From the NCBI GenBank assembly GCA_041666965.1, contig JBAYFX010000002.1, positions 8,417 through 72,416 of the forward strand: 64,000 nt of DNA, in the 5' to 3' direction. Shown here piece by piece: positions 28,076 through 50,158 of the stretch. The position numbers and the translations under genes are program-made. This DNA comes from Candidatus Shapirobacteria bacterium (GTDB taxonomy: Bacteria; Patescibacteriota; Microgenomatia; UBA12405). The first letter of the stretch is position 1; the number at the start of each line of letters is the position of its first letter. The notes under the pieces are model-generated. The model did no database searches. It saw nothing but the letters and a program-made list of their open reading frames with translations, and was not told where the DNA came from.

Positions 28076-28505
28076 TTAGTTTTTTCTTAACCAGCTCCGA
28101 CACCTGTCCTCCACTAGCTCGTCCCAAACTCTCAGCTATTACTTTCCGCATAATCGCTCCAAAATCTCTGTCTCCATCAGCCATAGCCCTGTCTATCATA
28201 ACCTCAAGCTCATCTTGATCCAAAGCTTTTGGTAAATAACTCTCCAACACTGCAATCTCTTTGGCTTCTGCTGCCGCTAACTCAATCCTTCCGGCGTCTT
28301 CAAATAATTTTTTAGCTTCTTGCTTATTCTTTAATTCTTTTTGCAATACCTTAGTTTCTTCAACCTCATTAAATTCATCCGCCGGAAGTTGTAGCGCCCG
28401 CTTGTCAATCAATGAAATTAAGTACCTTAAAATATCCACCATCTCTTGATCGTGGTTTTTTAAAGCCTTATCGGCTTCGGTTTTAAGTTTATCTCTTAAC
28501 AACAT
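28065..28505 (-). CDS. GatB/YqeY domain protein
   Basis: MLLRDKLKTEADKALKNHDQEMVDILRYLISLIDKRALQ resembles the YqeY N-terminus. 146 aa. Confidence 0.7.
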   Translation of the reverse strand: MLLRDKLKTEADKALKNHDQEMVDILRYLISLIDKRALQLPADEFNEVEETKVLQKELKNKQEAKKLFEDAGRIELAAAEAKEIAVLESYLPKALDQDELEVMIDRAMADGDRDFGAIMRKVIAESLGRASGGQVSELVKKKLSGN

Positions 28506-28716
28506 TGCGTCTCCTTTTGGATCGGCGGCGACACTTATCCCGCCAAATAATTACTTTTTTCTGAGCATACCGAGCGGCCGCCTTACTTACATAAGCCGTT
28601 CGCTTGCGGATTTCATCGGCTACATCCTCATCTAAGCTGATGCGCCTAAATTTCCCAATAATATCGTCTTTAGATTCTCCTTTGTTTTTTGTTACTATAA
28701 TAGACAAAAAATTCAC
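28489..28716 (-). CDS. rpsU: 30S ribosomal protein S21
   Basis: 75 aa with a basic C-terminus KCRRRSKRRRNVVKR typical of S21. Confidence 0.6.
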   Translation of the reverse strand: MNFLSIIVTKNKGESKDDIIGKFRRISLDEDVADEIRKRTAYVSKAAARYAQKKVIIWRDKCRRRSKRRRNVVKR

Positions 28717-28746: not shown

Positions 28747-29541
28747 TTAACGCCCTTGTAAACACTTAATCACATCCAGGCTGTTAACTACTCCGTTCCC
28801 ATCAAAATCCGTCCCATTGCTACATTCGGCTTTAACCGTTCCCGCCGGTGTTACTGTTATCGTTGTAAGAGGAATCACTGGCGTTGTTGCCGATACTGTT
28901 GTTGGTAATGCTGTTCCCGCTCGAGTTTTAAAGCAGGTAATAATGTCTATTGAGTTAGTAACTCCATCATGATTATAATCAACATCACTTTCACAACCCG
29001 CCTTAACTACCGGTGGGGTAACTGTCAGCATGTTTGTTGGCATAGGTTGAACTACTGGAGCTGTCGGTAATATTTCTTCTCGGTTCTCCCCTCCTCCTAT
29101 TGGTCTTTCTATCCCACTGCCAACTTTTGTGTTAAACGAAAAAGGAATTCCGGCGTTATCAAACACTTCCCACTCACTTTTCTTGGCTTCATCCTCCCCC
29201 GCTCGTATTCTAAAATAATAGTTTATATTCACTTTTAACGGGGTCAATACCACTGAATGAGATAGTGACCCGCTGGCTCCATCAATCTCACTTCTTAATA
29301 ACAAACTGGCTGGCGTCGTCCCATATTCCACGTATCCCCGGCTTTCTTTGGTTGTTTTCCAACTTATCGTCACACTTCTACCATCGGCCGTTACATTACT
29401 AGTTACCTCACTTGGTTGAAAATCAGCCGTTGCCCCAGACATATAAGTTTTTACAGTATCCATACCCAAAATTCCTAAAATCACCACCATTCCCATAATT
29501 ACCACCAGTATTACAGTCTTTATTTTAGAAGCTCCCCTCAT
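28747..29541 (-). CDS. Secreted protein with FN3-like domain and C-terminal dockerin-like repeat pair
   Basis: N-terminal signal anchor. FN3-like SVTISWKTTKESRGYVEYGTTPASL...YYFRIRAG. Dockerin-like segments DVDYNHDGVTNSIDIITCF and DFDGNGVVNSLDVIKCL. Confidence 0.55.
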   Translation of the reverse strand: MRGASKIKTVILVVIMGMVVILGILGMDTVKTYMSGATADFQPSEVTSNVTADGRSVTISWKTTKESRGYVEYGTTPASLLLRSEIDGASGSLSHSVVLTPLKVNINYYFRIRAGEDEAKKSEWEVFDNAGIPFSFNTKVGSGIERPIGGGENREEILPTAPVVQPMPTNMLTVTPPVVKAGCESDVDYNHDGVTNSIDIITCFKTRAGTALPTTVSATTPVIPLTTITVTPAGTVKAECSNGTDFDGNGVVNSLDVIKCLQGR

Positions 29542-29542
29542 T

Positions 29543-30220
29543 TTATTTAAGTCCGATTATATATTTCCCCAAGGTTAACACCGCCAGTCCTAAAACACTT
29601 AGTATGACTGTATTTTCTGCCCCTCCTGTTCTTGGTAATTCACTACTAGGTGTTGGTGTCGGCGTCGAGCTTGTAGTTGTTGTCGTCTCACCGCTTCCGG
29701 CTGTTATTTCATACGACCCGCTTTGATTAGCGGCGCAACTTACAATGTCTACTGCCTCACTACTAATGATGTTCGATTCCTTAACCGAGTCCGCCAAGCA
29801 ATTAAAATTTACCGCCGCAGTTCCGGTGGTCTTACCTTTAAAAGTAATCGTAAATAAATCCCCTTTAGCCGCCACCCCTGCCAAAGCACTGGGGTCACTT
29901 GGAGGTAAAGTTATCTCTATTTTTCCGGTATCGTTATGAATTAATGGAACAAAATTGTTACTGTCATACACGAAACCCGGGTTAGATATTGGCTCTACAG
30001 ACACCGCTTCTAATTTAGTCGCATTAAAATCAATTACTACATCAGCACTAATAATAGGCACTGAATCTGAGTCTACCCCCACCGTTACCTTAAAAGTGCC
30101 CCCCACAGGCGTGCTCCCAGTAGTTGGCGATAAAGTAAAATTAGCCACGGCCCCAACAGCCCCTACGCTGCCCGCGCCAATTAGCGCCATTAAAACTAAA
30201 ATATTTAATACTTTTTTCAT
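29543..30220 (-). CDS. Cohesin-like domain protein with LPxTG-type (LPRTG) cell-wall sorting signal
   Basis: Signal peptide. Cohesin-like block GGTFKVTVGVDSDSVPIISADVVIDFNATKLEAVSVEPIS...GKIEITL...GDLFTITFKGK. C-terminus ELPRTGG plus a hydrophobic segment and basic tail. Confidence 0.55.
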   Translation of the reverse strand: MKKVLNILVLMALIGAGSVGAVGAVANFTLSPTTGSTPVGGTFKVTVGVDSDSVPIISADVVIDFNATKLEAVSVEPISNPGFVYDSNNFVPLIHNDTGKIEITLPPSDPSALAGVAAKGDLFTITFKGKTTGTAAVNFNCLADSVKESNIISSEAVDIVSCAANQSGSYEITAGSGETTTTTSSTPTPTPSSELPRTGGAENTVILSVLGLAVLTLGKYIIGLK

Positions 30221-30852
30221 TACTTCAAAATGCTAACACTTAAGTCACCACTGTTAAAAGGTATCACCTTACTGGTTCCAGTTTCAACTAACATAGTTTC
30301 TGCCTCAGACTGGCCTTCACCCATAATTTTAAAACTAGTTTTACCACTTTCTAGTGGAGTAAAATAAATTCTTGCCAGTGCCACACTGCCCGCCGCTGTA
30401 AGTCGGTAACCGCTAGGTGAAGAAATTAGATAATTAACTAAAGCCACGTTTCCCTTTTTACTGATTTTGGCCACAATTGGCTTAGGCATCGAATTGTTAA
30501 TCTCAACTCTCTCCAGTGCCACTTTCTGGGTATCTACTTCAACATATACGCTTACCGCATCAAAACTCTTGCTCACAGTCGTACTCATCATCACATCCAC
30601 AAAACTCAATTGGTCTACAACTACACTAGCCTTTTCTGCCTCTAGTTTTATGGTTACATCCTCATTATTGGCAACTTTACTCACTTCTGGGACGTCTTTA
30701 TCGACCTCAATAATTTCAGGTTTATAACTTATTTGCCTTTGGGTTTTCTGACTCTCTAAACTATTTACCAAAACTACACTTTCTACCAAAACCAACACCG
30801 CAATAATTGGAATAATTATTTTTAGATATTTTTTGCTAATCATATTTGTCAT
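30220..30852 (-). CDS. Membrane-anchored cohesin-like domain protein
   Basis: N-terminal TM. FDAVSVYVEVDTQKVALERVEI...GSVALARIYFTPLESGKTSFKI follows the cohesin beta-sandwich pattern. Confidence 0.45.
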   Translation of the reverse strand: MTNMISKKYLKIIIPIIAVLVLVESVVLVNSLESQKTQRQISYKPEIIEVDKDVPEVSKVANNEDVTIKLEAEKASVVVDQLSFVDVMMSTTVSKSFDAVSVYVEVDTQKVALERVEINNSMPKPIVAKISKKGNVALVNYLISSPSGYRLTAAGSVALARIYFTPLESGKTSFKIMGEGQSEAETMLVETGTSKVIPFNSGDLSVSILK

Positions 30853-30858
30853 TACTTT

Positions 30859-32580
30859 TTAATATTGTTGGTCTTGCCTCTCTTTTAATGTTTGAGCTAG
30901 CAAACTTAAGTCAGCCGACGACATTTGACAATCCCCGTCCATATCGGTTACCAGGGCATTACTGTCCTTTGGTACCGAACTCCTGGCTAAAGCCGCCGTC
31001 TTAACCACCGAATAATCAAGTCCATTACAAACACCGTCCGGACCCGATGAGTTCTTACCCACTACGTCGCAAGCCATATCCGGGTATGCGGTAAAGTCAT
31101 AAACCTGACTGGTTGTTGCCACAGTAGTTAAGCTAATTTCTCCCCCGGGTAAATTATAAAAGCTGTCCTGTTTATCCTTGGCGTACTTAACTTGTAAATG
31201 TCTTGGTCCTTTAATAAACACCGACAAACCGCTTGAACCGGTAAAGTCAGTCAAAGCCAACGAGCCTTTGTACACCCGTAGGTTACCGGCTACCAAACCG
31301 TCCGGAGTCGGAGTATGGTTATAAGTTTTCACCAAATCCCCCTTTCGAACCGTAATTACCACCGGCCAATTGGACGCACATTCATTATTGTTTTTTACAC
31401 CGGCGTAAGTAATCCGATAATTAAGTATTGGTGCGGCGGTTGTCTCAACTACGCATGATGTTCCCCCGGCCTCACACTCAGCCACGCTTAAATATTGGCC
31501 ACCGCTACTTTGACTACAAATATATTTACCAGTAGCTGTATTACATGTTTCTCGGTTGTATTTGGCTACAGCCACCTCACAGCCCGCATCCGCCTCACAA
31601 CCTTCCTTCGTGTTAAATGTCCCGTCAGCTACCTGAATACAAGTCCAAGCACCTGTGGCTGTGTTACATGAAGCCGCAGTTGTCCCGTGACCCCACTTGT
31701 TTATCTTCACACAGTTAGCATCGGCTGTTACACACTCCGCCTCAGTCGCAAAGTCAGCTCCACTGGCTACCAAATTACATGTATATTCTCCGACCTGAGT
31801 ATTACATCCGGTTCTGACATATCCTCCAACTTCAGACTCACAACCTTGGGTATTTTGACATTCCGCCTCAGTCGCAAATTCACCGTTGGCACTTTGCTCA
31901 CAAAACCATTTCCCAGTAGTTGTGTTACATCCTTCTGTCTTACTCCATTTGGTCACTCCTTGACTAAATGTCATTTCCACTCCGTTTACTACCCCGATTT
32001 CCAAATACAAATCAGTACTTCCTTCCACTGGGTTAAACCCTGTCACTTTCGACATATCCTTTACAATTTCAATATTTTCATTACCGCTGGCCAAGGCAGT
32101 AAACTCCACCACTCCCACCAACACCGTCCCCTCTCCCAATTGGGCTTTTGGTTTCTCGGATTTTATCTCAATATTGGCACATGTTTTACCCGCTTGTGCT
32201 CCCGCACCCTCTTCCAGTTGAGATACCATAATCATATTGAATTTGTCCCCTACCCGTACTTGCTCTGAAATATCTCCGGTTTCACTGGCCTCAATTGTCA
32301 CTTTGTTTCCAAAGCACATATATGTCTTAACATAATCCACCTTGGCCTTTTCCCCTTCCGCTCCCATGGCCTTAGTATCTACATATATTTGTATCGAAAA
32401 CTTATCACCAACACTTTTAGTAGTTGCTGAAGATACCAGTAACATATCCGTACCGGCAAAGGCAGCACTGCGTCTGTTGTCCTGGTTCCTGTTTACTAAA
32501 ACTAACGCAGCTACTAAGGCTATTGATAATAAAATCAATACCAAATAAGAGGTTGGGTTGGTTGTCGTTTTTTTTCTCAT
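30859..32580 (-). CDS. Secreted modular protein with an N-terminal cohesin-like domain, four Cys-rich 36-aa repeats and dockerin-like C-terminus
   Basis: TM anchor. Cohesin-like KFSIQIYVDTKAMGAEGEKAKVDY...GTVLVGVVEFTALASG. Four repeats of GCNTxxGxxxC...FxTxxEC...C. C-terminal DMDGDCQMSSADLSLLAQTL. Confidence 0.5.
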   Translation of the reverse strand: MRKKTTTNPTSYLVLILLSIALVAALVLVNRNQDNRRSAAFAGTDMLLVSSATTKSVGDKFSIQIYVDTKAMGAEGEKAKVDYVKTYMCFGNKVTIEASETGDISEQVRVGDKFNMIMVSQLEEGAGAQAGKTCANIEIKSEKPKAQLGEGTVLVGVVEFTALASGNENIEIVKDMSKVTGFNPVEGSTDLYLEIGVVNGVEMTFSQGVTKWSKTEGCNTTTGKWFCEQSANGEFATEAECQNTQGCESEVGGYVRTGCNTQVGEYTCNLVASGADFATEAECVTADANCVKINKWGHGTTAASCNTATGAWTCIQVADGTFNTKEGCEADAGCEVAVAKYNRETCNTATGKYICSQSSGGQYLSVAECEAGGTSCVVETTAAPILNYRITYAGVKNNNECASNWPVVITVRKGDLVKTYNHTPTPDGLVAGNLRVYKGSLALTDFTGSSGLSVFIKGPRHLQVKYAKDKQDSFYNLPGGEISLTTVATTSQVYDFTAYPDMACDVVGKNSSGPDGVCNGLDYSVVKTAALARSSVPKDSNALVTDMDGDCQMSSADLSLLAQTLKERQDQQY

Positions 32581-32584
32581 TTTA

Positions 32585-35500
32585 TTATTTGAAATCTAAA
32601 TAGAACCTTCTCCAATTTGAATAATCGGCCTGGTCTACTAAGTTATTACAGTCAAAGTCAGATTCCCACCGACTCCCAGTTTTAATCTTGTCCAAGTATT
32701 CTTTGCGCCAAATGGAATAATCGGCTTGGTCGGTAACTCCGTTACAATCAGCATCAGCCTTCGCCTTACCTTTAAAGGTCGGTTTTACTACTTGTCTGGT
32801 AGTACAAGCGCTGTCCGGTACTACTTTTTGAACTCCATCTTCAGTGTAATCATGTACATATCCCGTTTGCTCATATCCCAAAACAAACCATTTATAGTTT
32901 TCTCCGTTTTTGTAGCACCTAAACACGCTTGGGCAGTCGTAACATGCCGCCGCCGTCACTGTCAGGCTAGCCGCATCACTGGTTAAATTGTTACAGTTGC
33001 TGGCAGTTGACTGGCATTTAATAGTCACCACTCCTGTTTTTATTGGAACCCAGTCTGTCTTTTTATTAGTATTAAATTCTTCTTTGGTTCCATCAGAGTA
33101 TGTAGCTATTAGTTTGACGCTACTAGCTAATTGGCCACTGGTATTATACATACAACCAATGTTAACTGTTTCCCCATTAACTACTGTCATACTCGTCTTC
33201 CATGGGTCACTATCGTTTGCCTGAACTCGGCTCTGTAAGGAGCTGTAACTACAGTTGTTTCCTGGAGGATTAGTCGGTCCGCCACCCGGAGGACTTGTTG
33301 GGTTTTGAGTCGGAATTGTGGTTGGAATACTAGTTGGTATTGTGGTAGGTACGGTCGAAGGTCGGTTTGTTGGAACAATTGTATTAGTTGGGGTTGGAGT
33401 CACCAAATTTGGGTTATCTATACAACAAATCCCTGACTGTAATACTATTCCGGTCCCGTAAGTCGCACAGCTCTCTCTTGGAGTATTCTCCATCTTTCGA
33501 GCCGGACAAACAGTGCTTAAAGTACAGGTACCTTCACTACATGCTTTCGCTGTTGGTTGATCCGGAGCGCAACATATGCCGTCTACTAAAAATGATCCCT
33601 GACTGGCGTAAGTAGTACAACTTCCGGTATTTTTAAATCCATTCCCACAGCTCACTGCTCCGGTTCCATCTCCGTAAATACACCGGCTGCTGCTATCACT
33701 ACACCCTCTTGGCATCCCCGTTGTCGGGGTTACGGTAGTTCCTGGCTTTTTACAGTTGTTACTACATTGATTTACATCAGTGTACCGACCGGTTCCAGTC
33801 TCTTTACAAGTCCAGGTAGCATCATCGCACTCATAGTATTTTTTGGACACATCCTGATCACATTGACCATCACAGTACGCTTTATCAGTATAGGTTCCGC
33901 TACTGTTATTCGCTTCACAGTTCCCTGTCAGCTTGTTACAGGCGTACTTATTCGACACACATTCACTCCAATCTCCACAACTTGGTTTTGAAGCTATACC
34001 TAGAGTTTGACAAACTTTATATCCAGTCTGACCGGCAACTCCGATACTACACGACATTTCAGTCCCAACTGTACACGGACACACTTGGCCTGTAGGTGTA
34101 GGCACCACCCCTTGTGTCGGAGTGGGAGTCGGTTCTGCTAGAACCGGTTTACACATACATTTGTTGTATCCGTTTTCAATTTCAAACACTTGACAGGAAT
34201 TACCTTGAGCACATGGTCCCTGAGCTCCAATTGGTTGATTTGAGCAAGCTATATAAGATCCGTACCACATAGAAGCACAATTACCTTCCACTGGTACATC
34301 TGGCATTGAACCGCAATAACTTCGCTCAACTGTCTCTCCGTCTACCCGGGTATTATAAGACCCGTTACAACAATTATTACAGTTAGGTGACCCTCCGGTT
34401 CCATAACACCTCGTTCCATCTGCCATACAATTCGGATCAACGGTTGGCGTTGCTACCCCGCACCTATACTGATTGTCTATCATCGATGCCGGTTGGCAAC
34501 AATTTGCACAACTAGTGGCTCCGCTTCCACCATTTACACACCCTATTCCGGAACCCAAACAAGCCGCAGTTGTTGGTGTTGTAGCCACTACCCCGCACCT
34601 ATACTGATTGTCTATCATCGATGCCGGTTGGCAACAATTTCCACATCCAGTTGCCCCGCTACCACCGTTTACACATCCAATTCCAGATCCAAGACAAGCT
34701 GCAGTTGTTGGTGTTGGAGTAACACACAATCCATTTGAAGAATTACATCCCAAATTTCCACAACTTGTTTTCAATGTCCATTGGAATAATGCTCCAATTT
34801 GCATACACTGATAAGAATTTCCACTAACGCACTTTGTTTGATAAGTTTGAGTTTGCAAACAACCAGAACCTGGTGAAATCGCATTGGTTGGTGTTGCTGT
34901 TGGCGGAACCGGGGTTGGGGTTGGAGCTACACACACAGAACCATAAGCCGGGCATACTAATCCGCTACCACATGAGTGAAACACCCATTTTCCATCCTGA
35001 CACTGATTAAATCCGTCGTGCGTATTGGCACATTCAGTAGTGTTATTTGGTTTAGTGCCACATGGTTGTGGATAATGGGTAACCCAACACTTCAAACCAA
35101 CAGCACATGTTGCTGTTTTATCTTCAATAATTTCAGGTAAAGACGGGGCTGATGCTGAGCATACTCCCGTACATGTCGCACACGAAGTTGTGCTAGCACA
35201 CGAATTGGAAGGACAATTTGTAGTAGTCCAACCAGAAGCATCAAATTTACATGTACTAAGTACACCGTTGGCGCAGGTTATTTTATTAGGTGTACATTTC
35301 CAATTCTGAGTTGGTCCGGCGTTCATACATTGGCTAATACAACCGGTATATTCCAATCCTTCTAAACCAATACACACACTAGTACAATCTGGAGTTGGTG
35401 TCGCTTTTGGAGTTGAGGTAGCTGCCGGTCTGGTTGGTACCGGAGTGTTTGTCGGAGGAGCACATAAAGCATTATTATCTTTAGCGTCATCATGGTGCCA

Positions 35501-36088
35501 ACAGCCGTCATTTCCACAGTGTTCTTGAGTTGTACCATTACATCGTTTGTTATCGTCATTTATAGGTGAGCAACCCGTACAGGTTGGTCCTGTCCCGCCC
35601 CCACATACTCCCCCACTACACAACTTTCCATCCGCACACATTTCATTACTGGTACATCCCCCACCCGCTTTTACCTTACAAGACCCATTCTGCCACACTT
35701 CCCATGATTGGCACTGTGGTGTCGCTGTTGGTTGGGGTTTACTTGTCGGTTGAGGTCCGCTTGTTGGAGCCGCACAGCCGTTGGTACAACCCGCCGAATC
35801 ATGGCTACAACTACCTGAGGTAAAAGTTTCGCCGGTACCACTCGAGTTACATGTAGCTGTCACTTCCTTAGCCTTTCCGCAGCCGCAACACTCTCCAAAA
35901 GTTCTTTTAGCTCCAGGCGTACAAGTAGCCGCTCGGTTTTGGGTGTTTTGATTCTGTTGAACTAACTTGGTTGCTGCCGGAAGCGCTATGGCCATCAAAA
36001 GCAATCCCACCATTAATGGTATTTGGGCCAACCCCGCTTGATTAAACCAATTACCTTTACTTTTTGAATTGCGACAGTAATCTTTCAT
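32585..36088 (-). CDS. Giant (1167 aa) secreted Cys-rich multi-module surface protein with PT linkers and dockerin-like C-terminus
   Basis: N-terminal signal anchor. Dozens of Cys in knottin/EGF-like spacing, PT-rich linkers, and two identical-order 45-aa repeats. C-terminal repeat pair DADCNGVTDQADYSIWRKEYL / DFDCNNLVDQADYSNWRRFYL is dockerin-like. Confidence 0.55.
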   Translation of the reverse strand: MKDYCRNSKSKGNWFNQAGLAQIPLMVGLLLMAIALPAATKLVQQNQNTQNRAATCTPGAKRTFGECCGCGKAKEVTATCNSSGTGETFTSGSCSHDSAGCTNGCAAPTSGPQPTSKPQPTATPQCQSWEVWQNGSCKVKAGGGCTSNEMCADGKLCSGGVCGGGTGPTCTGCSPINDDNKRCNGTTQEHCGNDGCWHHDDAKDNNALCAPPTNTPVPTRPAATSTPKATPTPDCTSVCIGLEGLEYTGCISQCMNAGPTQNWKCTPNKITCANGVLSTCKFDASGWTTTNCPSNSCASTTSCATCTGVCSASAPSLPEIIEDKTATCAVGLKCWVTHYPQPCGTKPNNTTECANTHDGFNQCQDGKWVFHSCGSGLVCPAYGSVCVAPTPTPVPPTATPTNAISPGSGCLQTQTYQTKCVSGNSYQCMQIGALFQWTLKTSCGNLGCNSSNGLCVTPTPTTAACLGSGIGCVNGGSGATGCGNCCQPASMIDNQYRCGVVATTPTTAACLGSGIGCVNGGSGATSCANCCQPASMIDNQYRCGVATPTVDPNCMADGTRCYGTGGSPNCNNCCNGSYNTRVDGETVERSYCGSMPDVPVEGNCASMWYGSYIACSNQPIGAQGPCAQGNSCQVFEIENGYNKCMCKPVLAEPTPTPTQGVVPTPTGQVCPCTVGTEMSCSIGVAGQTGYKVCQTLGIASKPSCGDWSECVSNKYACNKLTGNCEANNSSGTYTDKAYCDGQCDQDVSKKYYECDDATWTCKETGTGRYTDVNQCSNNCKKPGTTVTPTTGMPRGCSDSSSRCIYGDGTGAVSCGNGFKNTGSCTTYASQGSFLVDGICCAPDQPTAKACSEGTCTLSTVCPARKMENTPRESCATYGTGIVLQSGICCIDNPNLVTPTPTNTIVPTNRPSTVPTTIPTSIPTTIPTQNPTSPPGGGPTNPPGNNCSYSSLQSRVQANDSDPWKTSMTVVNGETVNIGCMYNTSGQLASSVKLIATYSDGTKEEFNTNKKTDWVPIKTGVVTIKCQSTASNCNNLTSDAASLTVTAAACYDCPSVFRCYKNGENYKWFVLGYEQTGYVHDYTEDGVQKVVPDSACTTRQVVKPTFKGKAKADADCNGVTDQADYSIWRKEYLDKIKTGSRWESDFDCNNLVDQADYSNWRRFYLDFK
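34440..34710. repeat. Tandem 135-bp coding repeat (2 copies, first ~55 bp identical) inside the giant adhesin gene
   Basis: The string taccccgcacctatactgattgtctatcatcgatgccggttggcaacaattt occurs at 34454 and again at 34589. It encodes TTPTTAACLGSGIGCVNGGSGAT.C.NCCQPASMIDNQYRCGV twice. Confidence 0.8.
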
Positions 36089-36183: not shown

Positions 36184-37569
36184 ATGTCCGCATCCCGTAA
36201 CCGCCAGCTCGTTAAAACTGCGCTATTGCTAGCCGCCCTGCCCCTCACTGTCTTGGGGGTTAAAAAAATTATTGATATCCGTAAAAGCGCTGCCGGCACT
36301 CCCGCCAACATCAGTATTGAAGTCGACTCTTACACCGGCTCCCTTCCGACCCAACTCTGGCAAAATTTAGCCCAAGGTGGGGAAGAACCCGCCGACATGA
36401 TCGGCCCCGTCTGGCCTTTAGTCCGCGCTCTTAAACCCCAACTAATCCGTGTCGATCACCTTTTTGACTATTACAATGTCTATCAAGGACCCGACAATTT
36501 TGATTTTTCCCGCCTCGATAAAGTTGTCCAAAGTATCGTCTTAACTGGCGCCACTCCCCTTCTCTCTCTTTCCTACACTCCCTCATCCATGGCCAAAAAC
36601 AATCAGAATGCCGGCGAGCCTCAAGATTGGAACCAATGGTATCAAATGGTCAAAGCCACCGCCGATCGCTACTCCCACCAAAAAAACATAACTGGCATAT
36701 ATTACGAAGTTTGGAACGAACCCGACCTTTTTGGCGGCTGGCATTATTCCAAATCCCCTTCCTACAGTTTGCTCTATTCTCATACTGCCCGGGCAGTTAG
36801 AGATGGCGCCCAAGGTTCAAGCTTTAAAATCGGTGGTCCGGCCATAACTGCTTTTTACCCCAACTGGATTCGATCCCTTTTGGCCACTGCAAGTTCTCAA
36901 CGCCTGCCTCTCGATTTTATTTCTTGGCATCATTATTCCAAAGACCTCAGTGACTTTGAACAGGATATTGAAAAACTTGAGTCAATTCTAGTTGATTATC
37001 CTCAATACATTAACATTGAGCGATTAATTACCGAGGTAGGCCCAAATTCCGAGCCTGATCCTGACTATGACAATTTAGAGTCCGGAGTCCATTTTATTTC
37101 CCTAGTTACTCGTCTTATAGGCCGAGTTCACCGACTCTTTCCTTTTGAAATTGTTGACGGGCCAACAACTCGCTCCAATGTTTCCACCGGTTGGGGCATG
37201 ATCACCCATCCCCCAACTCCTCGCACCAAACCCCGCTATAACGCCATCCAGTTCCTAAACCGCCTCGTTGGTCAAAGGCTAACCGTAGCCGGTCAAGGTT
37301 CCTGGGTTACAGCCTTAGCTACCCGCCAGGGTTCAAGAATTCAAGTGCTTTTATCCAATTATGATTCCCGTTCCCAACATGTCGAAACTTTTCCTCTGGC
37401 TCTGGCTGGTGTCCAACCCGGTACTTGGAAAGTCGAATCATATACTTATCCCCGCTCCGGCATTGAACCGCGAGTAACAAGGGTTGAAGTCACCAGTTTC
37501 CGCTTCCAAAAAGAATACTATCTAGAGCCTAACACTAGTCTCCTTCTGGAATTCACGCCTCAGCCTTAA
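36184..37569 (+). CDS. Secreted glycoside hydrolase, clan GH-A (GH39/GH30-like)
   Basis: Signal peptide. Acid/base block IYYEVWNEPDLF and nucleophile block LITEVGPNSE in a (beta/alpha)8-type order. Transcribed divergently from the cohesin-dockerin operon. Confidence 0.6.
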   Translation: MSASRNRQLVKTALLLAALPLTVLGVKKIIDIRKSAAGTPANISIEVDSYTGSLPTQLWQNLAQGGEEPADMIGPVWPLVRALKPQLIRVDHLFDYYNVYQGPDNFDFSRLDKVVQSIVLTGATPLLSLSYTPSSMAKNNQNAGEPQDWNQWYQMVKATADRYSHQKNITGIYYEVWNEPDLFGGWHYSKSPSYSLLYSHTARAVRDGAQGSSFKIGGPAITAFYPNWIRSLLATASSQRLPLDFISWHHYSKDLSDFEQDIEKLESILVDYPQYINIERLITEVGPNSEPDPDYDNLESGVHFISLVTRLIGRVHRLFPFEIVDGPTTRSNVSTGWGMITHPPTPRTKPRYNAIQFLNRLVGQRLTVAGQGSWVTALATRQGSRIQVLLSNYDSRSQHVETFPLALAGVQPGTWKVESYTYPRSGIEPRVTRVEVTSFRFQKEYYLEPNTSLLLEFTPQP

Positions 37570-40980: not shown

Positions 40981-42192
40981 TTAGCTTAATGTCTCACCCA
41001 CCACTGACCTAATTGCTCCAATAACCTGCTGCTCTACATCAGGATTATTCCTACTGCTTCCGTCTTCAAATTTTTCCCATACAGCCGGCTCCGAGCCGAC
41101 AGCATGCACATTAAACAAACGTCCACCCATCGTAACCACCAAAATTCCCCAATCGGCACTCCGGCTTACCCTAATACTTACGCTTATCCCGCCAATAGTT
41201 ACTACCCCGTCTATGTCTTGTCTAGATTCGATAAGCTGATCCCTAACTCTATCTAATAATCCTCTGTCAGCTTTAATTCTTACCTTTTCAACCGCAAACC
41301 TTTGCTCAAGACTGTCCCCTCCGGTAACTATCAGTGGCCGGGTCGGACCTTTAGCATCGACCGCTCCCTCCGCTTTTATCGGTTCCCACACTTTTGTAAA
41401 GTTCTGATCGTCTTTTCTACCACTAAACTCTGCCATCTCCGAACCAAAGAGTCTTATTAATCTCCGCATAGTTTTATTAACCTCGCCCACTGAAAATGTA
41501 TCACTCCCCAATGGTCTAAAAACAACCTCATCATTCACCTGGTTTAATCCCTCTACTTTGAAATTTTTTCCACCATTGTCCAAAACATTCACTCTCGGAT
41601 TATCACCATCACCTCCTTGAATAATTACCATCATCATTTCTCCTCTTCCATCTTCGGTTAGTTGGCAATGTAACACCGTGTGAATACTACCATCTTGGCT
41701 CCTATGCTCTTTACCCCCTAACCTTTGTAATCCGGCTACAATTACTCCAAATCTTGAATCTTCTGGTGTCAAACAAAACTCGCTTCTTGAATTAGTATCA
41801 ACAGTCTTAGCTACCTCTCTTGTCCCCACTGATATTATTTTCGCCTCCGCCGATTTCACTGTTATCTCCTCACCTCCCATTCTCTTTTCAGGTACATAAC
41901 CAGTATCAAGACCTTGCAAACCTTTCGTTTTTCCGGCTGCGCGATTCTTCCTCACCAACTCATCAGTCCAGTTCCAAGCAGACATTCCCCTATCATCCGC
42001 GTCCGCTCCCCCATCTCTCCACCTTAGTCTACTTACTGCTTTAAATATTATTTCACCATTTCCCAAGTTCCTAATTCTAAAAACACCTTGCTCTTGCTCT
42101 CTTTCCTGATATACGATATTTTCATCAATCACCTCCCCCCCAAACCTAACATGATAAACATATTTTTGACCTTCAGGACAATTCTTACACAT
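40981..42192 (-). CDS. Hypothetical protein, island gene (G/E/R-rich, 403 aa)
   Basis: Long uninterrupted ORF with no recognisable motif. Its composition is atypical for the rest of the window. Confidence 0.45.
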   Translation of the reverse strand: MCKNCPEGQKYVYHVRFGGEVIDENIVYQEREQEQGVFRIRNLGNGEIIFKAVSRLRWRDGGADADDRGMSAWNWTDELVRKNRAAGKTKGLQGLDTGYVPEKRMGGEEITVKSAEAKIISVGTREVAKTVDTNSRSEFCLTPEDSRFGVIVAGLQRLGGKEHRSQDGSIHTVLHCQLTEDGRGEMMMVIIQGGDGDNPRVNVLDNGGKNFKVEGLNQVNDEVVFRPLGSDTFSVGEVNKTMRRLIRLFGSEMAEFSGRKDDQNFTKVWEPIKAEGAVDAKGPTRPLIVTGGDSLEQRFAVEKVRIKADRGLLDRVRDQLIESRQDIDGVVTIGGISVSIRVSRSADWGILVVTMGGRLFNVHAVGSEPAVWEKFEDGSSRNNPDVEQQVIGAIRSVVGETLS

Positions 42193-42216
42193 ATGCCAAT
42201 AATATCACAAACTAGA

Positions 42217-42408
42217 TCATGTTTTAACCTTGTTTTCCTCCGTTATGATCAGCCTGGCTTGAGGTAATTCTGGTTTAATCGGAACAATTACTAAACCATT
42301 TGTATCAACTCCTTTTCTCTTCCACCCTCCTAACGGTTCCCATGGTCCTTTTGGTATCTGAAATCCATTATCATTATCTAAAATTTTTTTATAATCATGC
42401 CTTCCCAT
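42217..42408 (-). CDS. Small hypothetical protein (63 aa)
   Basis: Short ORF between island genes. Low support. Confidence 0.25.
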   Translation of the reverse strand: MGRHDYKKILDNDNGFQIPKGPWEPLGGWKRKGVDTNGLVIVPIKPELPQARLIITEENKVKT

Positions 42409-42468
42409 AATTAATTATACTACGCACCCAGTAAGTACACCGTAAAAATTTAATCAGTATTACTACTT

Positions 42469-43059
42469 TTACAAAAGTCCCATTTTCATCATTTGTACGT
42501 TAAATACTCCCATAACCTTAGTTGCTATTTCACTGGCTTTTGTTATCGACATGTCACACAAATTAAAGACCTTGAAACTAGTCAATTGCGCATCTTTCAC
42601 CACAAAACTCAAACCATACCAGTTTTCCCCTGTTCTTACTCTAAGTAAAAACTGATCCTCTACCTTATCCCATTGCGCAACAAATTGATCATCAGGATTC
42701 ATACCAAATATCAAGGAAACACCATTGTAACCAGCCATAGTCAAACTTTTTAATGTGCTACGCATTAGTAAAATCCTATACCAATCATTTTCCCCTATTC
42801 CCGCATCAATCATTTGATTTCTTAATTCATTACTGGTGCCGCTCCATTTTAAAGCTGCTCCGGTTTTATCATATTTAGCTATAGAATAAGTAGGGTCTCT
42901 TAGTCGAATCCCTTCCCCTACAGGGTATGGCAAGCTCCCATCGTCCACAGCCGCCCCAAATCCAAAACATTTTGGGGATAGTTGTACCCCCTTTCCCCAC
43001 AAAGTCGGCCCGTCACTTCCTCTAATCTTACTTTCAATATCTCCAAAACTCATCACCAA
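42469..43059 (-). CDS. Hypothetical protein, island gene (196 aa)
   Basis: ORF preceded by a conserved ATATTATAGGTTTA...TATAAT-N5-ATG architecture shared with the next gene. Confidence 0.45.
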   Translation of the reverse strand: MVMSFGDIESKIRGSDGPTLWGKGVQLSPKCFGFGAAVDDGSLPYPVGEGIRLRDPTYSIAKYDKTGAALKWSGTSNELRNQMIDAGIGENDWYRILLMRSTLKSLTMAGYNGVSLIFGMNPDDQFVAQWDKVEDQFLLRVRTGENWYGLSFVVKDAQLTSFKVFNLCDMSITKASEIATKVMGVFNVQMMKMGLL

Positions 43060-43085
43060 TTATACCATATATAAACCTATAATAT
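43059..43085 (-). promoter_or_regulatory. Conserved promoter-like element upstream of 42469-43059
   Basis: The minus strand reads TAATATATTATAGGTTTATATATGGTATAATTGGTGATG. A TATAAT hexamer sits 5 nt before the ATG, suggesting a leaderless start. The ATATTATAGGTTTA box is shared with 43790-43815. Confidence 0.4.
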
Positions 43086-43103
43086 ATTAAAACTTCTACA
43101 CCC

Positions 43104-43790
43104 TCACCCTAAAGTAGATTGACCATAATAACCATCTTTTCCCGCTAAATCTACTGTAGTTTCTGGATTATTTATTATACTGGGCAACAAAGCCATTATT
43201 TTGTCTATCCCAATTCGTTTTTTACCATTTTCTAATCTAGAATCTCTACCTTCAACTGTAAATTCAACTAACTTACTTCTCTCAAATTTACAGTCCACCA
43301 GTACACTATCAGGATTATCAATTTCACTTACAATCATTCTCAAATTTTTTGTGGAATTATCCCAAAACAGTATTAGTCTATTTCCGCTCTCTCCTATCAA
43401 CTTATTAATTAATGCTGATTCCAATCCTTCAATACGTGAGACCTTATCTTCTAATTTATTTGTTAACCTCATAATCATTTCCCATCTCTCTTGGTTTATT
43501 CCTACTCCCTCCATCATCATAGCCAACCCATAATTATCCATACCTTCCCACAGCTTCGACCACTCTTCTTGTTGCAATGGGCCCCCTACCCCCTGAGTCT
43601 GGTTTTCTACCATATCAGTCAAACCGTGTACAAAAGTCATTGATCCTTCCCCGGGTGGATAACCCCCCACAGTCGGCCGCGTCCAAACACCTATCAATCC
43701 CCATCTTAAAACGAAATCAGCGCCTTGCCCCAAACTCCACTCCCCATCTCCTAATGTGCCCCTTGGGCTCACTTCGTAAATCATCGACAA
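43104..43790 (-). CDS. Hypothetical protein, island gene (228 aa)
   Basis: ORF with the same upstream architecture as the downstream gene. No recognisable motif. Confidence 0.45.
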   Translation of the reverse strand: MSMIYEVSPRGTLGDGEWSLGQGADFVLRWGLIGVWTRPTVGGYPPGEGSMTFVHGLTDMVENQTQGVGGPLQQEEWSKLWEGMDNYGLAMMMEGVGINQERWEMIMRLTNKLEDKVSRIEGLESALINKLIGESGNRLILFWDNSTKNLRMIVSEIDNPDSVLVDCKFERSKLVEFTVEGRDSRLENGKKRIGIDKIMALLPSIINNPETTVDLAGKDGYYGQSTLG

Positions 43791-43815
43791 TTATAGCATA
43801 AGTAAACCTATAATA
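43790..43815 (-). promoter_or_regulatory. Conserved promoter-like element upstream of 43104-43790
   Basis: The minus strand reads AACTAATATTATAGGTTTACTTATGCTATAATTGTCGATG: the same box, a TATAAT, a 5-nt gap and an ATG. Confidence 0.4.
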
Positions 43816-44979
43816 TTAGTTTTTATTATCGTACCACCTAGGCAAGTCCACCCCAAAACACCCAATTACCCCATCACCCTCAACTTCTTTAAACATTGAA
43901 TTAAGATGAACCAGTTTTATCTCTCCTAACCCACCCTCCGTTACACAACAAGACAGCATTTCCACTGCTTTTCTCATTTTTGTTCTTATTCTCCAGTCTA
44001 CCGACTCAACCCCTTTTCCTGTTTGATTCATCAAATTCACTAATACCACCTCTCCCTCCTCATCAAAATTCGCTATTATTTTCCAATTTTCATTTGTAAC
44101 TTTATCTTGAATCACGATTCTTAATATTCTGTCATTTGACTCCCAAGCTCCAATCGCTTTATTAGTTTCTCCGTCTGCTACTAAAATTCCCACATCCGCA
44201 CCCGCATCATAATATAAAGAATTCTCAAGCATCCCTTTTACCCCATAAATCCCATCCAAATCCCCTTGGTTAAAACCCAACCCTTCTAATCTTTTTCTAA
44301 CTTGATATGACGTCCCCTCTTCCCACCCGCCCCCACTCATTTCCTGTTCTTCACGTAACTCAGTTATGTTTTCTTTGGCTGCTTTATGTACTACCTGCCA
44401 CATACTACTCCAATCAAAACCCTCTTTAATATCACCATCTATCTCAGTTACCCTGTCACCCTCAAACCTTACTCTAACTTTTGCTAAAGTTTCACCCTCT
44501 TCTTCTGGCTCCAATTCAATTCTCAAAACTCCATCATCAGCATAACTTGCCAGTAATTTACGGTCCCCTATTCGGTAAGTTAAATATCCAACCTCTCCGC
44601 TCGCCATATCAGTCCCAATTTGTTTTTTTATATCAACCACGCTTAAAAATGCCGCACCCCCCAACTTCATTTCCACCAGCTTACGTTTATCCAATCCACT
44701 AGGTTTCAAAGTCAATGTCTCCGCTTGGGGCATTACTTCACCCTCCACTTTCAGAGTCTCCATAGCTTCTCTAAAGGCCATTTCGTTTTCAATACCTTCC
44801 ATTAAACTCTCCCGGCTTCTCATTGCCCTGGTTACTTCTGGTAATTTTGGTCTTGGTCCGTCCCCCGTCGGATATTCCATTCCTGTTACTCGTGTCCTAA
44901 ATTGACTCAAGCACCCGGCTACTTGCCAACCAAGAGGGTTATACCCTCTCTTTCCTTCACCGCTTTCTATTTTAGCCAT
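43816..44979 (-). CDS. Hypothetical protein, member of island paralog family (387 aa)
   Basis: N-terminal GYNPLGWQVAGC resembles DGLALRPVTGC of the 642-aa protein. Carries a W/E-rich module (AIGAWESNDRILRIVIQDKVTNENWKIIANFDEEGE). Confidence 0.45.
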   Translation of the reverse strand: MAKIESGEGKRGYNPLGWQVAGCLSQFRTRVTGMEYPTGDGPRPKLPEVTRAMRSRESLMEGIENEMAFREAMETLKVEGEVMPQAETLTLKPSGLDKRKLVEMKLGGAAFLSVVDIKKQIGTDMASGEVGYLTYRIGDRKLLASYADDGVLRIELEPEEEGETLAKVRVRFEGDRVTEIDGDIKEGFDWSSMWQVVHKAAKENITELREEQEMSGGGWEEGTSYQVRKRLEGLGFNQGDLDGIYGVKGMLENSLYYDAGADVGILVADGETNKAIGAWESNDRILRIVIQDKVTNENWKIIANFDEEGEVVLVNLMNQTGKGVESVDWRIRTKMRKAVEMLSCCVTEGGLGEIKLVHLNSMFKEVEGDGVIGCFGVDLPRWYDNKN

Positions 44980-45251
44980 TAGTTACTTGGGTGGTACATG
45001 CCCACCCTTGCCCCTAATTTAACTGCATAATCGATTAGGAGTAAATCATCTGTCACCCTGAGTCCCTTTAAATTCAGTTGTATGTCACCTCCACCTCTTG
45101 GTTGTGGTAAATCTGCCACTACCAACTCAGTTGTCAACCCATATTCACCAATACACTTTCGGCAGGCGTCAACCGGCTCTCTTCTCCCCCCTGCTTCCAC
45201 CACCGCCAATCCAACTCCGATTTCAGTTTTGCAAAATGTACATTTACTCAT
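44979..45251 (-). CDS. Zn-ribbon small protein (CxxC...CxxC), island gene
   Basis: 90 aa. CTFCKTEIG...ACRKCIGEYG. Translationally coupled to its flanking genes (1-2 nt junctions). Confidence 0.4.
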   Translation of the reverse strand: MSKCTFCKTEIGVGLAVVEAGGRREPVDACRKCIGEYGLTTELVVADLPQPRGGGDIQLNLKGLRVTDDLLLIDYAVKLGARVGMYHPSN

Positions 45252-45253
45252 AA

Positions 45254-46246
45254 TTAATTCAAATTTAAATTTATAATTCGTCCATTAGTTACAACTGTAT
45301 CTTCCTTCCCCCCATAAACTCCAAACCTATCAACTTTACTTGGATCAACCCATCCCAAGTCAGGTTTAGGGTCATCTACAAATTCAAAGACCGGAATCTC
45401 TTCTTTCTGTGTCTTCTCTTGTTCTAGTTCTACTACTTTCCAATCAGAAGTAACCAACCCGCAAATCAGACCTGTTTCAGCTCCCTCTTCTCCCAGTTCT
45501 CCGCCCTCAGCCTCTTCAATTATCTCAATTCCCCTAATACTCTCCGCTTCTCCGTACTCCATTAAGTGGTTCAAAAAACTACTCACTATTCCTCTTTGAA
45601 CCTCATCAGGCAAACTACCCGCCTGGGTAATAAACGCAAATGCCTCAACTTCCCCGCTCTCACCAAACCCAAAGCTAATCCCAAAATCTTCCATCGAGTC
45701 GTCACTCCAAACAACTGCCAAAGTCCCCTCCGCCCTATCCCACATCACCGAAGCATCAAAACTTCCAGCAGCTAAAAATGCACAGGCGACCTGCTCCATA
45801 CCATTAAGCGCTTTGCCTAATTCCTTCTTAAAATACAATATTCTGGCCCAACTTTCCGGACCAAACCCAAATCCTTCCATCTCCGTTCGGAAATCCCCCA
45901 GCTTCCTCCATTCAATTTCCCTTTCAATTACCTTCAAGCCTTCGTATTTGGGCATATCCGTTACCGGTACTCCCATTCCGGCATAAACGCACAACGATTC
46001 TTCCCAAACTCTAAAAGCCTCTTCCATTTTTAAAAACCGCACTGGCAATACCGGGTCAATCCCTTCCTTCTCCCTCCTGAACCCTACTCCCTTCAGACTC
46101 TCTCCAGTTGCGCCCCCCCCTGCCACGTCCATAACTAACTGCGAATATGGCCTCAACGCCACTCCATCATGACCCTCCCTCCTTTCACTTTTATCTTCAC
46201 CTCTTATTTCTTTTTCTAAATCTCCCATCAGTTTCTCCCCCACCAA
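45254..46246 (-). CDS. Hypothetical protein, member of island paralog family (330 aa)
   Basis: N-terminus MVGEKLMG...DGVALRP parallels MGEKKMG...DGLALRP of the 642-aa protein. Shares the GFGPESWARILYFKKEL motif. Confidence 0.45.
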   Translation of the reverse strand: MVGEKLMGDLEKEIRGEDKSERREGHDGVALRPYSQLVMDVAGGGATGESLKGVGFRREKEGIDPVLPVRFLKMEEAFRVWEESLCVYAGMGVPVTDMPKYEGLKVIEREIEWRKLGDFRTEMEGFGFGPESWARILYFKKELGKALNGMEQVACAFLAAGSFDASVMWDRAEGTLAVVWSDDSMEDFGISFGFGESGEVEAFAFITQAGSLPDEVQRGIVSSFLNHLMEYGEAESIRGIEIIEEAEGGELGEEGAETGLICGLVTSDWKVVELEQEKTQKEEIPVFEFVDDPKPDLGWVDPSKVDRFGVYGGKEDTVVTNGRIINLNLN

Positions 46247-49183: not shown

Positions 49184-49385
49184 TCCGGTTCCTTTGCTTT
49201 AAACCCAATAAATTATTACGTTCCATAATCCGGTTGAATATAAGCACTAATTTTTTGCCCGTGTAATCTATCCCTGTTTGGTCCACAAACTCCGCTAACA
49301 TTCAAGGATTGTGAAAGTGTTCCCTGGTAAACAATTATTCCCATCTCAACTCCGGTAGTTTCTCTTCCCTTTTTTAAACAGATAT

Positions 49386-50000: not shown

Positions 50001-50158
50001 ACCTTCCAGGGCTCCCTCCCAAGCGTTATGGGACTTCACCTTAAAATTACCCCATAATATAAACTCAATTTAATAAATTTGCAAGCACCAAAAGCCCATT
50101 TTTCAGACGTAAAAGAAGTTTGTAACAATTTAGTAAGAAATACTACTTAATATATCTT

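Follow-up and report, generated by a model that had tools for sequence, protein, structure and literature searches.

What does a bacterium with a reduced genome do with cohesins and dockerins? The question is raised by five genes in a 64-kb stretch of DNA (the window) from Candidatus Shapirobacteria, a CPR lineage, which a preliminary description had read as one operon for a modular surface complex. The cluster occupies positions 28747-36088 on the minus strand, as do all features below unless stated otherwise, and consists of ORFs of 264, 225, 210, 573 and 1167 aa, all of which were confirmed. The intergenic gaps are 1, -1 (base 30220 is shared), 6 and 4 nt, none longer than 6 nt, which fits a single operon. 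When genes were called independently on the source contig, the same five were obtained, with the start of the 210-aa ORF at Met4 (207 aa). The cluster is present in the same gene order in about 20 Candidatus Shapirobacteria species genomes and, because it is syntenic as a whole, is far beyond chance; it is vertically conserved within the housekeeping neighbourhood frr-rseP ... rpsU-yqeY-ybeY-dnaX. The operon and the reduced-genome host of the preliminary description are upheld, as is its claim of signal- or membrane-anchored products: each of the five proteins carries a hydrophobic N-terminal segment (anchor or signal) as read from the translations, and in four of them the N-terminus is a TM anchor in which residues are conserved. 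The reading favoured here, with somewhat better than even confidence, is that the three cohesins and three dockerins encoded by the operon are a closed set and form a self-assembling, non-enzymatic scaffold on a Gram-positive-like CPR cell surface.

Cohesin domains and the sortase-type anchor

The 225-aa anchoring protein (29543..30220) consists of a signal peptide (residues 1-26), a cohesin (27-175), a T/S/P-rich linker, LPRTG, a hydrophobic segment and a tail that contains Lys. It scores 43.4 bits with Pfam Cohesin (cut-off 24.1). After the LPRTG motif (residues 195-199; 29624-29638) come a hydrophobic stretch and, C-terminally, a Lys. In 30 aligned homologues L195, P196 and G199 are invariant, T198 is found in at least 90%, and the order LPxTG, hydrophobic segment, basic residue is kept. 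The LPXTG models fall just under their cut-offs (TIGR01167, 15.2 against 15.9; PF00746, 14.7 against 20); the proposed sortase-substrate signature is borne out by the conserved motif. The search for a sortase gene returned none in the window or in the flanks of 21 related loci (up to 10 kb, as far as the contig extends). A sortase is expected in the host because near-ubiquity in Microgenomates is reported in the literature (PMC6744442).

A second cohesin lies at residues 41-206 (31963..32460) of the 573-aa protein (30859..32580), behind an N-terminal TM segment. The 210-aa protein (30220..30852) contains no Cys. A Pro, an Ala, a Glu and a Ser are conserved in its N-terminal TM helix, behind which lies a cohesin-like domain of divergent sequence at about residues 62-210 (30223-30669). 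By hhalign this domain matches the cohesin family at 80% (E 1.4e-5) and the family of the 573-aa N-terminal domain at 94%, and the 210-aa family gives reciprocal HMM matches with both other cohesin families. Its three best PDB sequence matches are cohesins, all weak (E 0.18-0.34), and its AlphaFold model (pLDDT 44) is not usable. The cohesin-like patterns first noticed in these three proteins are real, in divergent form in the 210-aa protein.

Dockerin tails and the giant protein

F-hand calcium loops are present in the C-terminal tails of the 264-, 573- and 1167-aa proteins. Five of the six loops have D/N at positions 1, 3 and 5, D/N/S at 9 and D at 12; the sixth, the first loop of the 573-aa protein, bears an insertion. 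With Pfam Dockerin_1 the window copies of the 573-aa (22.0 bits) and 264-aa (18.7 bits) proteins are sub-threshold (cut-off 22.9) and that of the 1167-aa protein has no match. Among orthologues, counted at E up to 0.1, matches were obtained for 12 of 19 (573-aa; best E 1.8e-8), 21 of 21 (264-aa; 5.5e-8) and 10 of 18 (1167-aa; 1.1e-5). The paired calcium-loop tails first proposed are supported as dockerin-type at the level of families, by loops, orthologue matches and PDB profile matches.

The 264-aa protein (28747..29541) has an N-terminal TM segment, an FN3/purple-acid-phosphatase-N-like domain at residues 43-127 (Pfam Pur_ac_phosph_N, 39.3 bits), a PT linker and a split dockerin. The two F-hand units (28933-28995 and 28762-28824) are each bracketed by an invariant Cys pair and are joined by a linker of variable length; several orthologues also match EF-hand models.

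In the 573-aa protein, outlined by a family alignment and an AlphaFold model, the cohesin is followed by four Cys-rich mini-modules (31429..31962), located by regular expression and direct reading. The expression C-N-T-x-T-G-x-[WY]-x-C ... G-x-[FY] ... C ... C finds three copies, and the fourth, similar one was seen by eye. This region is a variable insert in the family alignment, absent or reduced in most orthologues. Immediately before the dockerin lies the 'X' domain (residues 385-497; 31090..31428), which all orthologues conserve. It is family-specific in a local HMM search and beta-rich, being modelled as all-beta at pLDDT of about 60-79. The dockerin (30862..31089) has its insertion in loop 1 (DVVGKNSSGPDGVCNGLD...) and a canonical loop 2 (DMDGDCQMSSADLSLLAQTL; 30886-30945). 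In the PDB its family profile, too, matches only dockerins, among them 8x39 (1.3e-5) and 1ohz_B (1.3e-3); the AlphaFold prediction over it (pLDDT <40) is unusable.

The giant protein of 1167 aa (32585..36088) has an N-terminal anchor module, a Cys-rich middle, a pre-dockerin region and a C-terminal dockerin. The description of many Cys-rich modules on PT linkers was accurate: 107 Cys (9.2%) and eight PT-rich linkers were counted. CPR bacteria encode MdbA/VKOR-type disulfide machinery (PMC6744442), which would suit such a protein. An exhaustive phmmer search gave 254 relatives, conserved only at residues ~13-120 and 880-1167, and orthologues range from 419 to 1643 aa; the middle is hypervariable, whereas the termini and the pre-dockerin region are conserved. 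The N-terminal module (GLAQIPLMVGLLLMAIALPAATKLVQQNQNTQNRA, residues 19-53; 35930..36034) shares 45-70% identity among Cys-rich relatives that otherwise look unrelated, with Q22, L29, P37 and A53 invariant. Tandem Repeats Finder located a 135-bp tandem duplication (34453..34716; 2 copies, 89% match), which is a recent doubling of one 45-aa Cys-rich module, the peptide being visible in the translation. The 4-Cys mini-module type of the 573-aa protein recurs at residues 717-779. The dockerin (32588..32818) has two F-hand segments, DADCNGVTDQADYSIWRKEYL (32693-32755) and DFDCNNLVDQADYSNWRRFYL (32597-32659), both with D/N at loop positions 1, 3, 5, 9 and 12, and its family profile matches only dockerins in the PDB (8x39, 5.3e-7; 4fl4, 3.2e-5; 2y3n, 7.3e-5).

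Pairing and the proposed scaffold

The three cohesins and three dockerins of the cluster match one to one in number, and no further cohesin or dockerin ORF was detected with local HMMs in the window or in the sequence flanking the 21 loci. Pairing was addressed by an exploratory distance-matrix covariation of short, saturated domains in 13-17 species. The strongest signals were those of the 573-aa cohesin with the giant dockerin (rho 0.49-0.64) and of the 225-aa cohesin with the 573-aa dockerin (0.49-0.57), both exceeding within-protein controls (0.28-0.45; Mantel p <0.001). This exploratory result suggests an order from the wall-anchored 225-aa cohesin through the 573-aa adaptor to the giant protein. 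The 225-aa protein would be secreted and linked covalently to peptidoglycan by sortase, as is ScaE of Ruminococcus flavefaciens; its cohesin would hold the X-dockerin of the 573-aa protein, a monovalent adaptor, whose N-terminal cohesin would in turn hold the giant dockerin. The disulfide-rich, PT-linked, species-variable modules would then be presented outwards as the binding part. By elimination, the membrane-anchored 210-aa cohesin and the split dockerin of the 264-aa FN3 protein may form a third pair, for which no covariation was seen (rho ~-0.05). N-terminal segments may keep four of the five proteins in the membrane, which would complicate simple outward stacking.

The scaffold is probably a ScaE-like, sortase-anchored display system for adhesion. 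Judged from architecture and variability, its likely role is not catalysis but attachment to a surface or to another cell, be it partner or host. The cluster looks like a self-assembling tether displaying a huge, fast-changing Cys-rich protein, a plausible attachment device for Shapirobacteria. A housekeeping scaffold that links the membrane with the wall or gives order to the surface (S-layer-like or wall-spanning), for envelope integrity and not for partner binding, is unlikely: the vertical conservation and the N-terminal anchors speak for it, as does a dockerin-domain envelope protein reported to be essential in a cultivated Saccharibacterium (PMC10633639), but a purely structural role leaves unexplained why the giant protein varies four-fold in length and turns over its modules between species. 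It is improbable that the modules are real but not mutually paired, each binding a partner whose gene lies elsewhere or one on another organism, with co-regulation as the only reason for the clustering. The 264-aa dockerin and the 210-aa cohesin, which covary with nothing, would agree with this; against it stand the 3:3 set conserved in one tight operon and the two inter-protein pairs that covary more than domains of the same protein.

Enzymes and known systems

The cluster had been placed beside a glycoside hydrolase and given a possible role in polymer capture. A GH39-like gene with an N-terminal TM segment (36184..37569, plus strand; Pfam Glyco_hydro_39, 74.9 bits) does adjoin the cluster, divergently transcribed, and is found at the same position in 7 related loci. 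It carries no dockerin by Pfam, and it is missing between rseP and the giant gene in loci L007, L008, L019 and L020, so it is probably not a cluster component, and neither polymer capture nor a cellulosome-like enzyme complex is supported. A miniature cellulosome, with cohesins recruiting dockerin-bearing glycoside hydrolases (distant ones or the GH39 neighbour) for capture or degradation of polysaccharides, has little probability. Cohesin/dockerin modules with a sortase-type anchoring cohesin are hallmarks of the Ruminococcus cellulosome (PMC5301203), the GH39-like gene is adjacent, and dockerin-bearing enzymes could be encoded beyond the 64 kb; however, no catalytic or CBM family was detected on any dockerin-bearing protein of the cluster or on their relatives, and the cohesins and dockerins of the cluster already match one another. 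A sortase-assembled or type IV pilus-like fibre, with the LPxTG protein as pilin or the giant N-terminus (basic stretch, invariant-like Gly, hydrophobic helix) as prepilin-type signal, is largely refuted: CPR bacteria commonly have type IV pili (PMC6744442) and lower-ranked fold matches of the beta-sandwich include Gram-positive pilins, but prepilin/N_methyl models match none of 22 giant-protein family members.

The non-enzymatic scaffold favoured here resembles the sca cluster (scaC-scaA-scaB-cttA-scaE) of R. flavefaciens, with no sequence-level orthology implied. It differs in several respects: it yielded neither enzymes nor CBMs nor a scaffoldin with multiple cohesins; all partner proteins bear a TM anchor at the N-terminus; its cargo is a giant protein that is both disulfide-rich and hypervariable; one of the dockerins is split, its units bracketed by Cys; and the host is a small-genome CPR bacterium rather than a fibrolytic Firmicute. 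Non-cellulosomal cohesin/dockerin modules are known to be widespread, and NCBI gives one homologue the name 'cohesin domain-containing protein'. The pairs of Clostridium perfringens glycosidase/toxin complexes, Archaeoglobus fulgidus and ANME archaea are scattered genes or enzyme-borne modules, whereas here five genes form a compact, syntenic operon that is closed, has a sortase-type anchor and includes no enzyme. What is unusual in a reduced-genome lineage is not the domains themselves, but their organised, lineage-wide, non-enzymatic operon. SEML1_0315 of the Saccharibacterium Southlakia epibionticum is a single protein of another CPR class with no cohesin partner described; by annotation it is likewise a dockerin cell-envelope protein of a Patescibacteria lineage, is essential by Tn-seq, and has been speculated to serve in host-glycan targeting or adhesion (PMC10633639).

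Gene order and conservation of the cluster

The preliminary description placed five ORFs on the minus strand of this region, and all five were recovered at the same positions. They encode the giant protein of 1167 aa (32585-36088), the 573-aa protein (30859-32580), the 210-aa protein (30220-30852), the 225-aa protein (29543-30220) and the 264-aa protein (28747-29541). From the giant gene to the 264-aa gene the intergenic gaps are 4, 6, -1 and 1 nt, which is consistent with one transcription unit. A public contig with identical proteins (ENA ERZ27249449, k141_112945) has independent gene calls that match in all but one respect: the 210-aa ORF is started there from Met4. By direct reading, all five products begin with a hydrophobic segment, as expected for the anchor or signal segments initially described. 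Scans for promoter and terminator consensus sequences gave counts at the level of shuffled sequence. The operon is bounded downstream by a basic ORF of 72 aa (28489-28707, minus strand) that lies between the cluster and yqeY and resembles ribosomal protein S21 (rpsU).

About 20 species have the whole cluster with identical gene order and orientation (BLAST of the ORFs of 21 related loci against the window proteins), always between frr-rseP, with or without a GH39-like gene, and rpsU-yqeY-ybeY-dnaX. The 225-, 210- and 264-aa proteins keep their lengths across the loci. The 573-aa family keeps its N-terminal cohesin and, at the C-terminus, a beta-rich X domain followed by the dockerin, with Cys-rich inserts gained or lost. 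Searched with HMMs of each module family, the window and the flanks of the other loci yielded no additional cohesin or dockerin ORF, and the module set is closed at three cohesins and three dockerins. The CPR/Microgenomates affiliation that had been guessed is borne out by the related proteins and by the 21 loci, taken from species-representative genomes. Where these bear a lineage label it is mostly Shapirobacteria, with one Woesebacteria, and the rest are generic (e.g., ‘Patescibacteria group’). Five of the syntenic loci (L002, L008, L009, L011 and L017) are labelled ‘uncultured Gammaproteobacteria bacterium’ (binchicken co-assemblies), which is probably a placeholder or a mislabel.

Elsewhere in the window, eight consecutive minus-strand ORFs (40981-53007; 155-642 aa) have neither a Pfam match nor a predicted TM segment. 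They adjoin an ATPase resembling TrwB/VirD4-type coupling proteins (50863-53007, plus strand), and the block could be mobile-element or secretion-related. The window has a very strong G/C strand disparity, with 15.1% G and 27.9% C, giving an overall GC skew of -0.30 that is negative in every 2-kb bin from 1 to 64000. It resembles the one-directional G/C strand disparity described for other Microgenomates (PMC7143001), and for Shapirobacteria such a skew has apparently not been noted before.

Cohesin and dockerin modules

Cohesin-like patterns had been described in the 225- and 210-aa proteins and at the N-terminus of the 573-aa protein; they hold for the first and the last of these, while the 210-aa protein is a probable case. 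The 225-aa protein matches Pfam Cohesin (PF00963) with 43.4 bits (gathering cut-off 24.1), residues 30-156 aligning with profile positions 3-132 of 139. Most of its homologues carry a precomputed PF00963 match, and one is named ‘cohesin domain-containing protein [Candidatus Shapirobacteria bacterium]’ in the database. It is the only one of the three to pass the Cohesin HMM, as the N-terminal domain of the 573-aa protein and the 210-aa protein have no Pfam match. Word-indexed homologue searches returned three proteins for the 210-aa family and six for the 573-aa family, and the alignments used for modelling were equally shallow.

A profile of the 573-aa N-terminal domain (18 orthologues) aligned with the 225-aa family in hhalign with 96.8% probability (E 2.5e-10, 153 columns). 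The AlphaFold2 model of this domain, built from a six-sequence alignment, has pLDDT values of 74-92 over residues 41-206, and cohesins made up nearly all of the approximately 40 best PDB matches of the 573-aa model in Foldseek (best E 1.9e-7). The cohesin fold is a nine-stranded jelly-roll; by homology and by the presence of this fold in the model, the domain is identified as a cohesin. The cohesin domain also dominated the results of whole-chain fold searches that included the X domain and the Cys-rich modules. For the 210-aa family, the hhalign probability was 80% with the 225-aa family (E 1.4e-5) and 94% with the N-terminal domain of the 573-aa protein, and plain HMMs gave reciprocal cross-family matches with E 2e-6 to 4e-3 in a set of 1054 ORFs. 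The three best matches of the 210-aa protein in a PDB sequence search were cohesins, but weak ones (E 0.18-0.34), and its AlphaFold model, from a three-sequence alignment, was unusable (pLDDT 44). The protein is probably a divergent cohesin. Its TM helix (30763-30822) has Pro15, Ala18, Glu24 and Ser25 invariant or near-invariant in the family; a charged Glu conserved within a single-pass anchor may point to contacts between this helix and those of the other anchors.

Dockerins consist of two duplicated segments, each with a 12-residue calcium loop (D/N at positions 1, 3, 5, 9 and 12) and a helix behind it. Direct reading gave five loops: DADCNGVTDQAD and DFDCNNLVDQAD in the giant protein, DYNHDGVTNSID and DFDGNGVVNSLD in the 264-aa protein, and DMDGDCQMSSAD as the second loop of the 573-aa protein, whose first loop contains an insertion. 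All have D/N at positions 1, 3 and 5, D/N/S at 9 and D at 12, with a helix-like segment after each, so that the duplicated calcium-loop architecture of dockerins is present. The dockerin part of the 573-aa model has a pLDDT below 40. Against Pfam Dockerin_1 (PF00404; cut-off 22.9 bits) the window copies of the 573-aa and 264-aa proteins score 22.0 and 18.7 bits, and the tail of the giant protein itself has no match, whereas the orthologues do match at E up to 0.1: 12 of 19 for the 573-aa protein (best 1.8e-8), 21 of 21 for the 264-aa protein (best 5.5e-8) and 10 of 18 for the giant protein (best 1.1e-5). In the PDB, profiles retrieved dockerins only, both for the giant tail (8x39, 5.3e-7; 4fl4, 3.2e-5; 2y3n, 7.3e-5) and for the 573-aa family (8x39, 1.3e-5; 1ohz_B, 1.3e-3). 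The three dockerin-type tails noted in the preliminary description are supported by their loop residues and by matches at the level of the family, where the assignment is solid; the Dockerin_1 HMM was matched by orthologues, and the window copies stay below its cut-off.

The three dockerins differ in detail. In the 264-aa family an invariant Cys pair encloses each F-hand unit, and the two units are split by a PT-rich linker of a few to about 36 residues, an atypical layout. The dockerin of the giant-protein family has Trp/Tyr in its helices (D-Y-S-I-W-R) and Cys at position 4 of each loop. Recognition residues of dockerins are usually located at loop positions 10-11. These are QA/QA in one dockerin, SI/SL in another and, for the 573-aa protein, SA in its canonical second loop, which would fit three predicted binding specificities. 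In two related loci (L007, 7673-8092; L008, 2303-2722) the giant dockerin has a degenerate first calcium loop, and of its F-hands just the second is preserved, which would permit a single binding mode only.

Putative wall anchor and proposed order of assembly

The 225-aa protein consists of a signal peptide, the cohesin, a T/S/P-rich linker, LPRTG, a hydrophobic stretch and a short Lys-containing tail. The signal peptide (MKKVLNILVLMALIGAGSVGAVGAVA) is typical, and at the C-terminus LPRTG is followed by 20 mostly hydrophobic residues and K...K. In an alignment of 30 homologues the L, P and G of LPxTG never vary, T is kept in at least 90%, and K/R usually occurs near the C-terminus. The LPxTG anchor proposed initially is upheld by this conservation, while the scores of the corresponding models remain just below their cut-offs (TIGR01167, 15.2 vs 15.9; PF00746, 14.7 vs 20). 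With a signal peptide and a C-terminal sorting signal the protein has the layout of a putative sortase substrate. No TLxTC-type sortase ORF turned up when the 64-kb window and the flanks of the 21 loci (up to 10 kb, contig permitting) were scanned for TLxTC preceded by His and followed by Arg. The sortase family is reported to be near ubiquitous in Microgenomates (Meheust et al., PMC6744442).

The closest known logic is that of the R. flavefaciens sca cluster. There, ScaE, an already known sortase-anchored cohesin, is a single cohesin linked to the wall via LPXTG and accepts both ScaB and the adhesion protein CttA through their X-dockerins, and ScaC is an adaptor with one cohesin and one dockerin (PMC5301203). 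By analogy, the 225-aa protein would be the wall anchor, the 573-aa protein (cohesin at one end, X-dockerin at the other) a monovalent adaptor, and the giant protein the displayed cargo. In an exploratory mirror-tree analysis of 13-17 species, the strongest covariation between proteins was that of the 573-aa cohesin with the giant dockerin (rho 0.49-0.64), followed by the 225-aa cohesin with the 573-aa dockerin (0.49-0.57). Covariation of domains within a protein was lower (0.28-0.45), and both top pairs were robust to the removal of outlier species. This pattern supports a predicted order from the 225-aa through the 573-aa to the giant protein. The 210-aa cohesin and the 264-aa dockerin gave no covariation signal among the 13-17 species and are therefore paired by elimination only.

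The giant protein and the possible role of the cluster

Orthologues of the giant protein range from 419 to 1643 aa and are conserved only in the first ~60 and the last 120-290 residues. Only 254 relatives emerged when 1.84 billion representatives were searched exhaustively with phmmer, and these too are conserved at the ends only. The relatives P0001 and P0002, with 96% and 73% identity, mark close strains. Within the giant gene, a 135-bp tandem duplication (34453-34716; two copies, 89% identical) doubles one 45-aa Cys-rich module, indicating that module turnover is ongoing. MdbA/VKOR-type disulfide-forming proteins are reported to be enriched in CPR (Meheust et al., PMC6744442), which would suit a secreted giant protein with 107 cysteines. 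A 4-Cys mini-module of ~30 aa (C-N-T-x-T-G-x-[WY]-x-C ... G-x-[FY] ... C ... C) that belongs to no Pfam family recurs in the 573-aa protein (31429-31962) and in the giant protein (33752-33940), and occurs as a single copy in some orthologues (loci L003 and L007).

A giant protein that faces outwards, varies between species and is rich in disulfides would point to adhesion, either to a partner cell or to a surface. Adhesion agrees with what has been proposed for non-cellulosomal cohesin-dockerin systems in ANME consortia (PMC9012536) and also fits the essential dockerin-domain envelope protein of a cultivated Saccharibacterium (PMC10633639). A structural role in the envelope is the main rival to adhesion. 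The preliminary description had also tied the cluster to the neighbouring glycoside hydrolase. A cellulosome has carbohydrate-active enzymes that bear dockerins and assemble on cohesin scaffoldins. The GH39-like gene does adjoin the giant gene, but it lacks a dockerin, sits on the opposite strand and is missing at four of the syntenic loci. In addition, the dockerin proteins have no catalytic or CBM family, nor do 9 + 22 relatives, and the 64-kb window contains no additional dockerin; the cellulosomal, GH39-linked reading was rejected as the main explanation. The pilus reading was rejected as well: the cluster has a single LPxTG protein, itself a cohesin. Type IV prepilins carry G / F-x-x-x-E at the cleavage/methylation site, and the N-terminus of the giant protein is superficially similar (basic stretch, Gly, hydrophobic helix), but no N_methyl/TIGR02532 match was found in the window protein or in 22 members, and Pro, not Glu, is at +5.

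Apart from the glycoside hydrolase link and the sortase, the initial interpretation is supported. As a tentative proposal, itself judged rather improbable, the cluster may be a lineage-wide host- or partner-attachment organelle of Shapirobacteria: a three-tier, sortase-rooted cohesin-dockerin tether whose distal, rapidly diversifying and disulfide-rich giant protein would set the cell or surface held by the ultra-small bacterium, while the conserved N-terminal anchor module, not described before, and the Cys-stapled split dockerin would be inventions of the lineage. If true, it would be the first CPR cohesin-dockerin system devoted to adhesion between cells and to host range. The operon as such would carry the logic of sortase-anchored scaffoldins, known from rumen cellulosomes, over to a reduced genome and a role without enzymes. 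Partner attachment in CPR/Patescibacteria is little known beyond a few cultivated Saccharibacteria, and most CPR surface proteins are annotated as hypothetical; a protein identical to the 573-aa product, from a Candidatus Shapirobacteria MAG, is listed as ‘hypothetical protein WCT01_00855’ (NCBI). Against this background the operon is a concrete, conserved and testable attachment candidate whose anchor and adaptor are defined and whose distal protein is hypervariable.

According to Peer et al. 2009, as cited in PMC9012536, cohesin and dockerin modules are well known outside cellulosomes. A literature search of incomplete coverage returned no description of the cluster, of cohesin-dockerin systems in Shapirobacteria or of a compact, closed, lineage-wide and enzyme-free CPR operon of this kind. 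The same search found no hypervariable Cys-rich cargo, no Cys-bracketed split dockerin, no TM anchors on four of five partners and no unusually conserved N-terminal anchor module of this type. The cluster yields divergent cohesin and dockerin sequences that are missed by current Pfam thresholds, and new sequence features in the Cys-bracketed split dockerin, the 4-Cys mini-module and the conserved N-terminal anchor.

The N-terminal module of the giant protein (residues 19-53; 35930-36034) reads ‘[KR]..G[LFI]AQ[IL]P..LLIMAxAxPxxTKLVQxNQ[DE]xRNxA’; Cys-rich proteins that are otherwise hypervariable share it at 45-70% identity. The module and the 573-aa family have a post-TM motif in common, ‘LVxxNQ[DE]TRRGA’ (32464-32493). 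The module may serve as a sorting or processing signal peculiar to the lineage, or may form an intramembrane contact. In locus L002 an extra ORF of 308 aa (2041-2967) with a giant-like N-terminal region is located between frr and rseP, outside the cluster. One relative of the giant protein, P0071 (1041 aa), has the conserved pre-dockerin region followed by a cohesin (Pfam, 48.9 bits) where the dockerin is expected; terminal modules have apparently been swapped in evolution.
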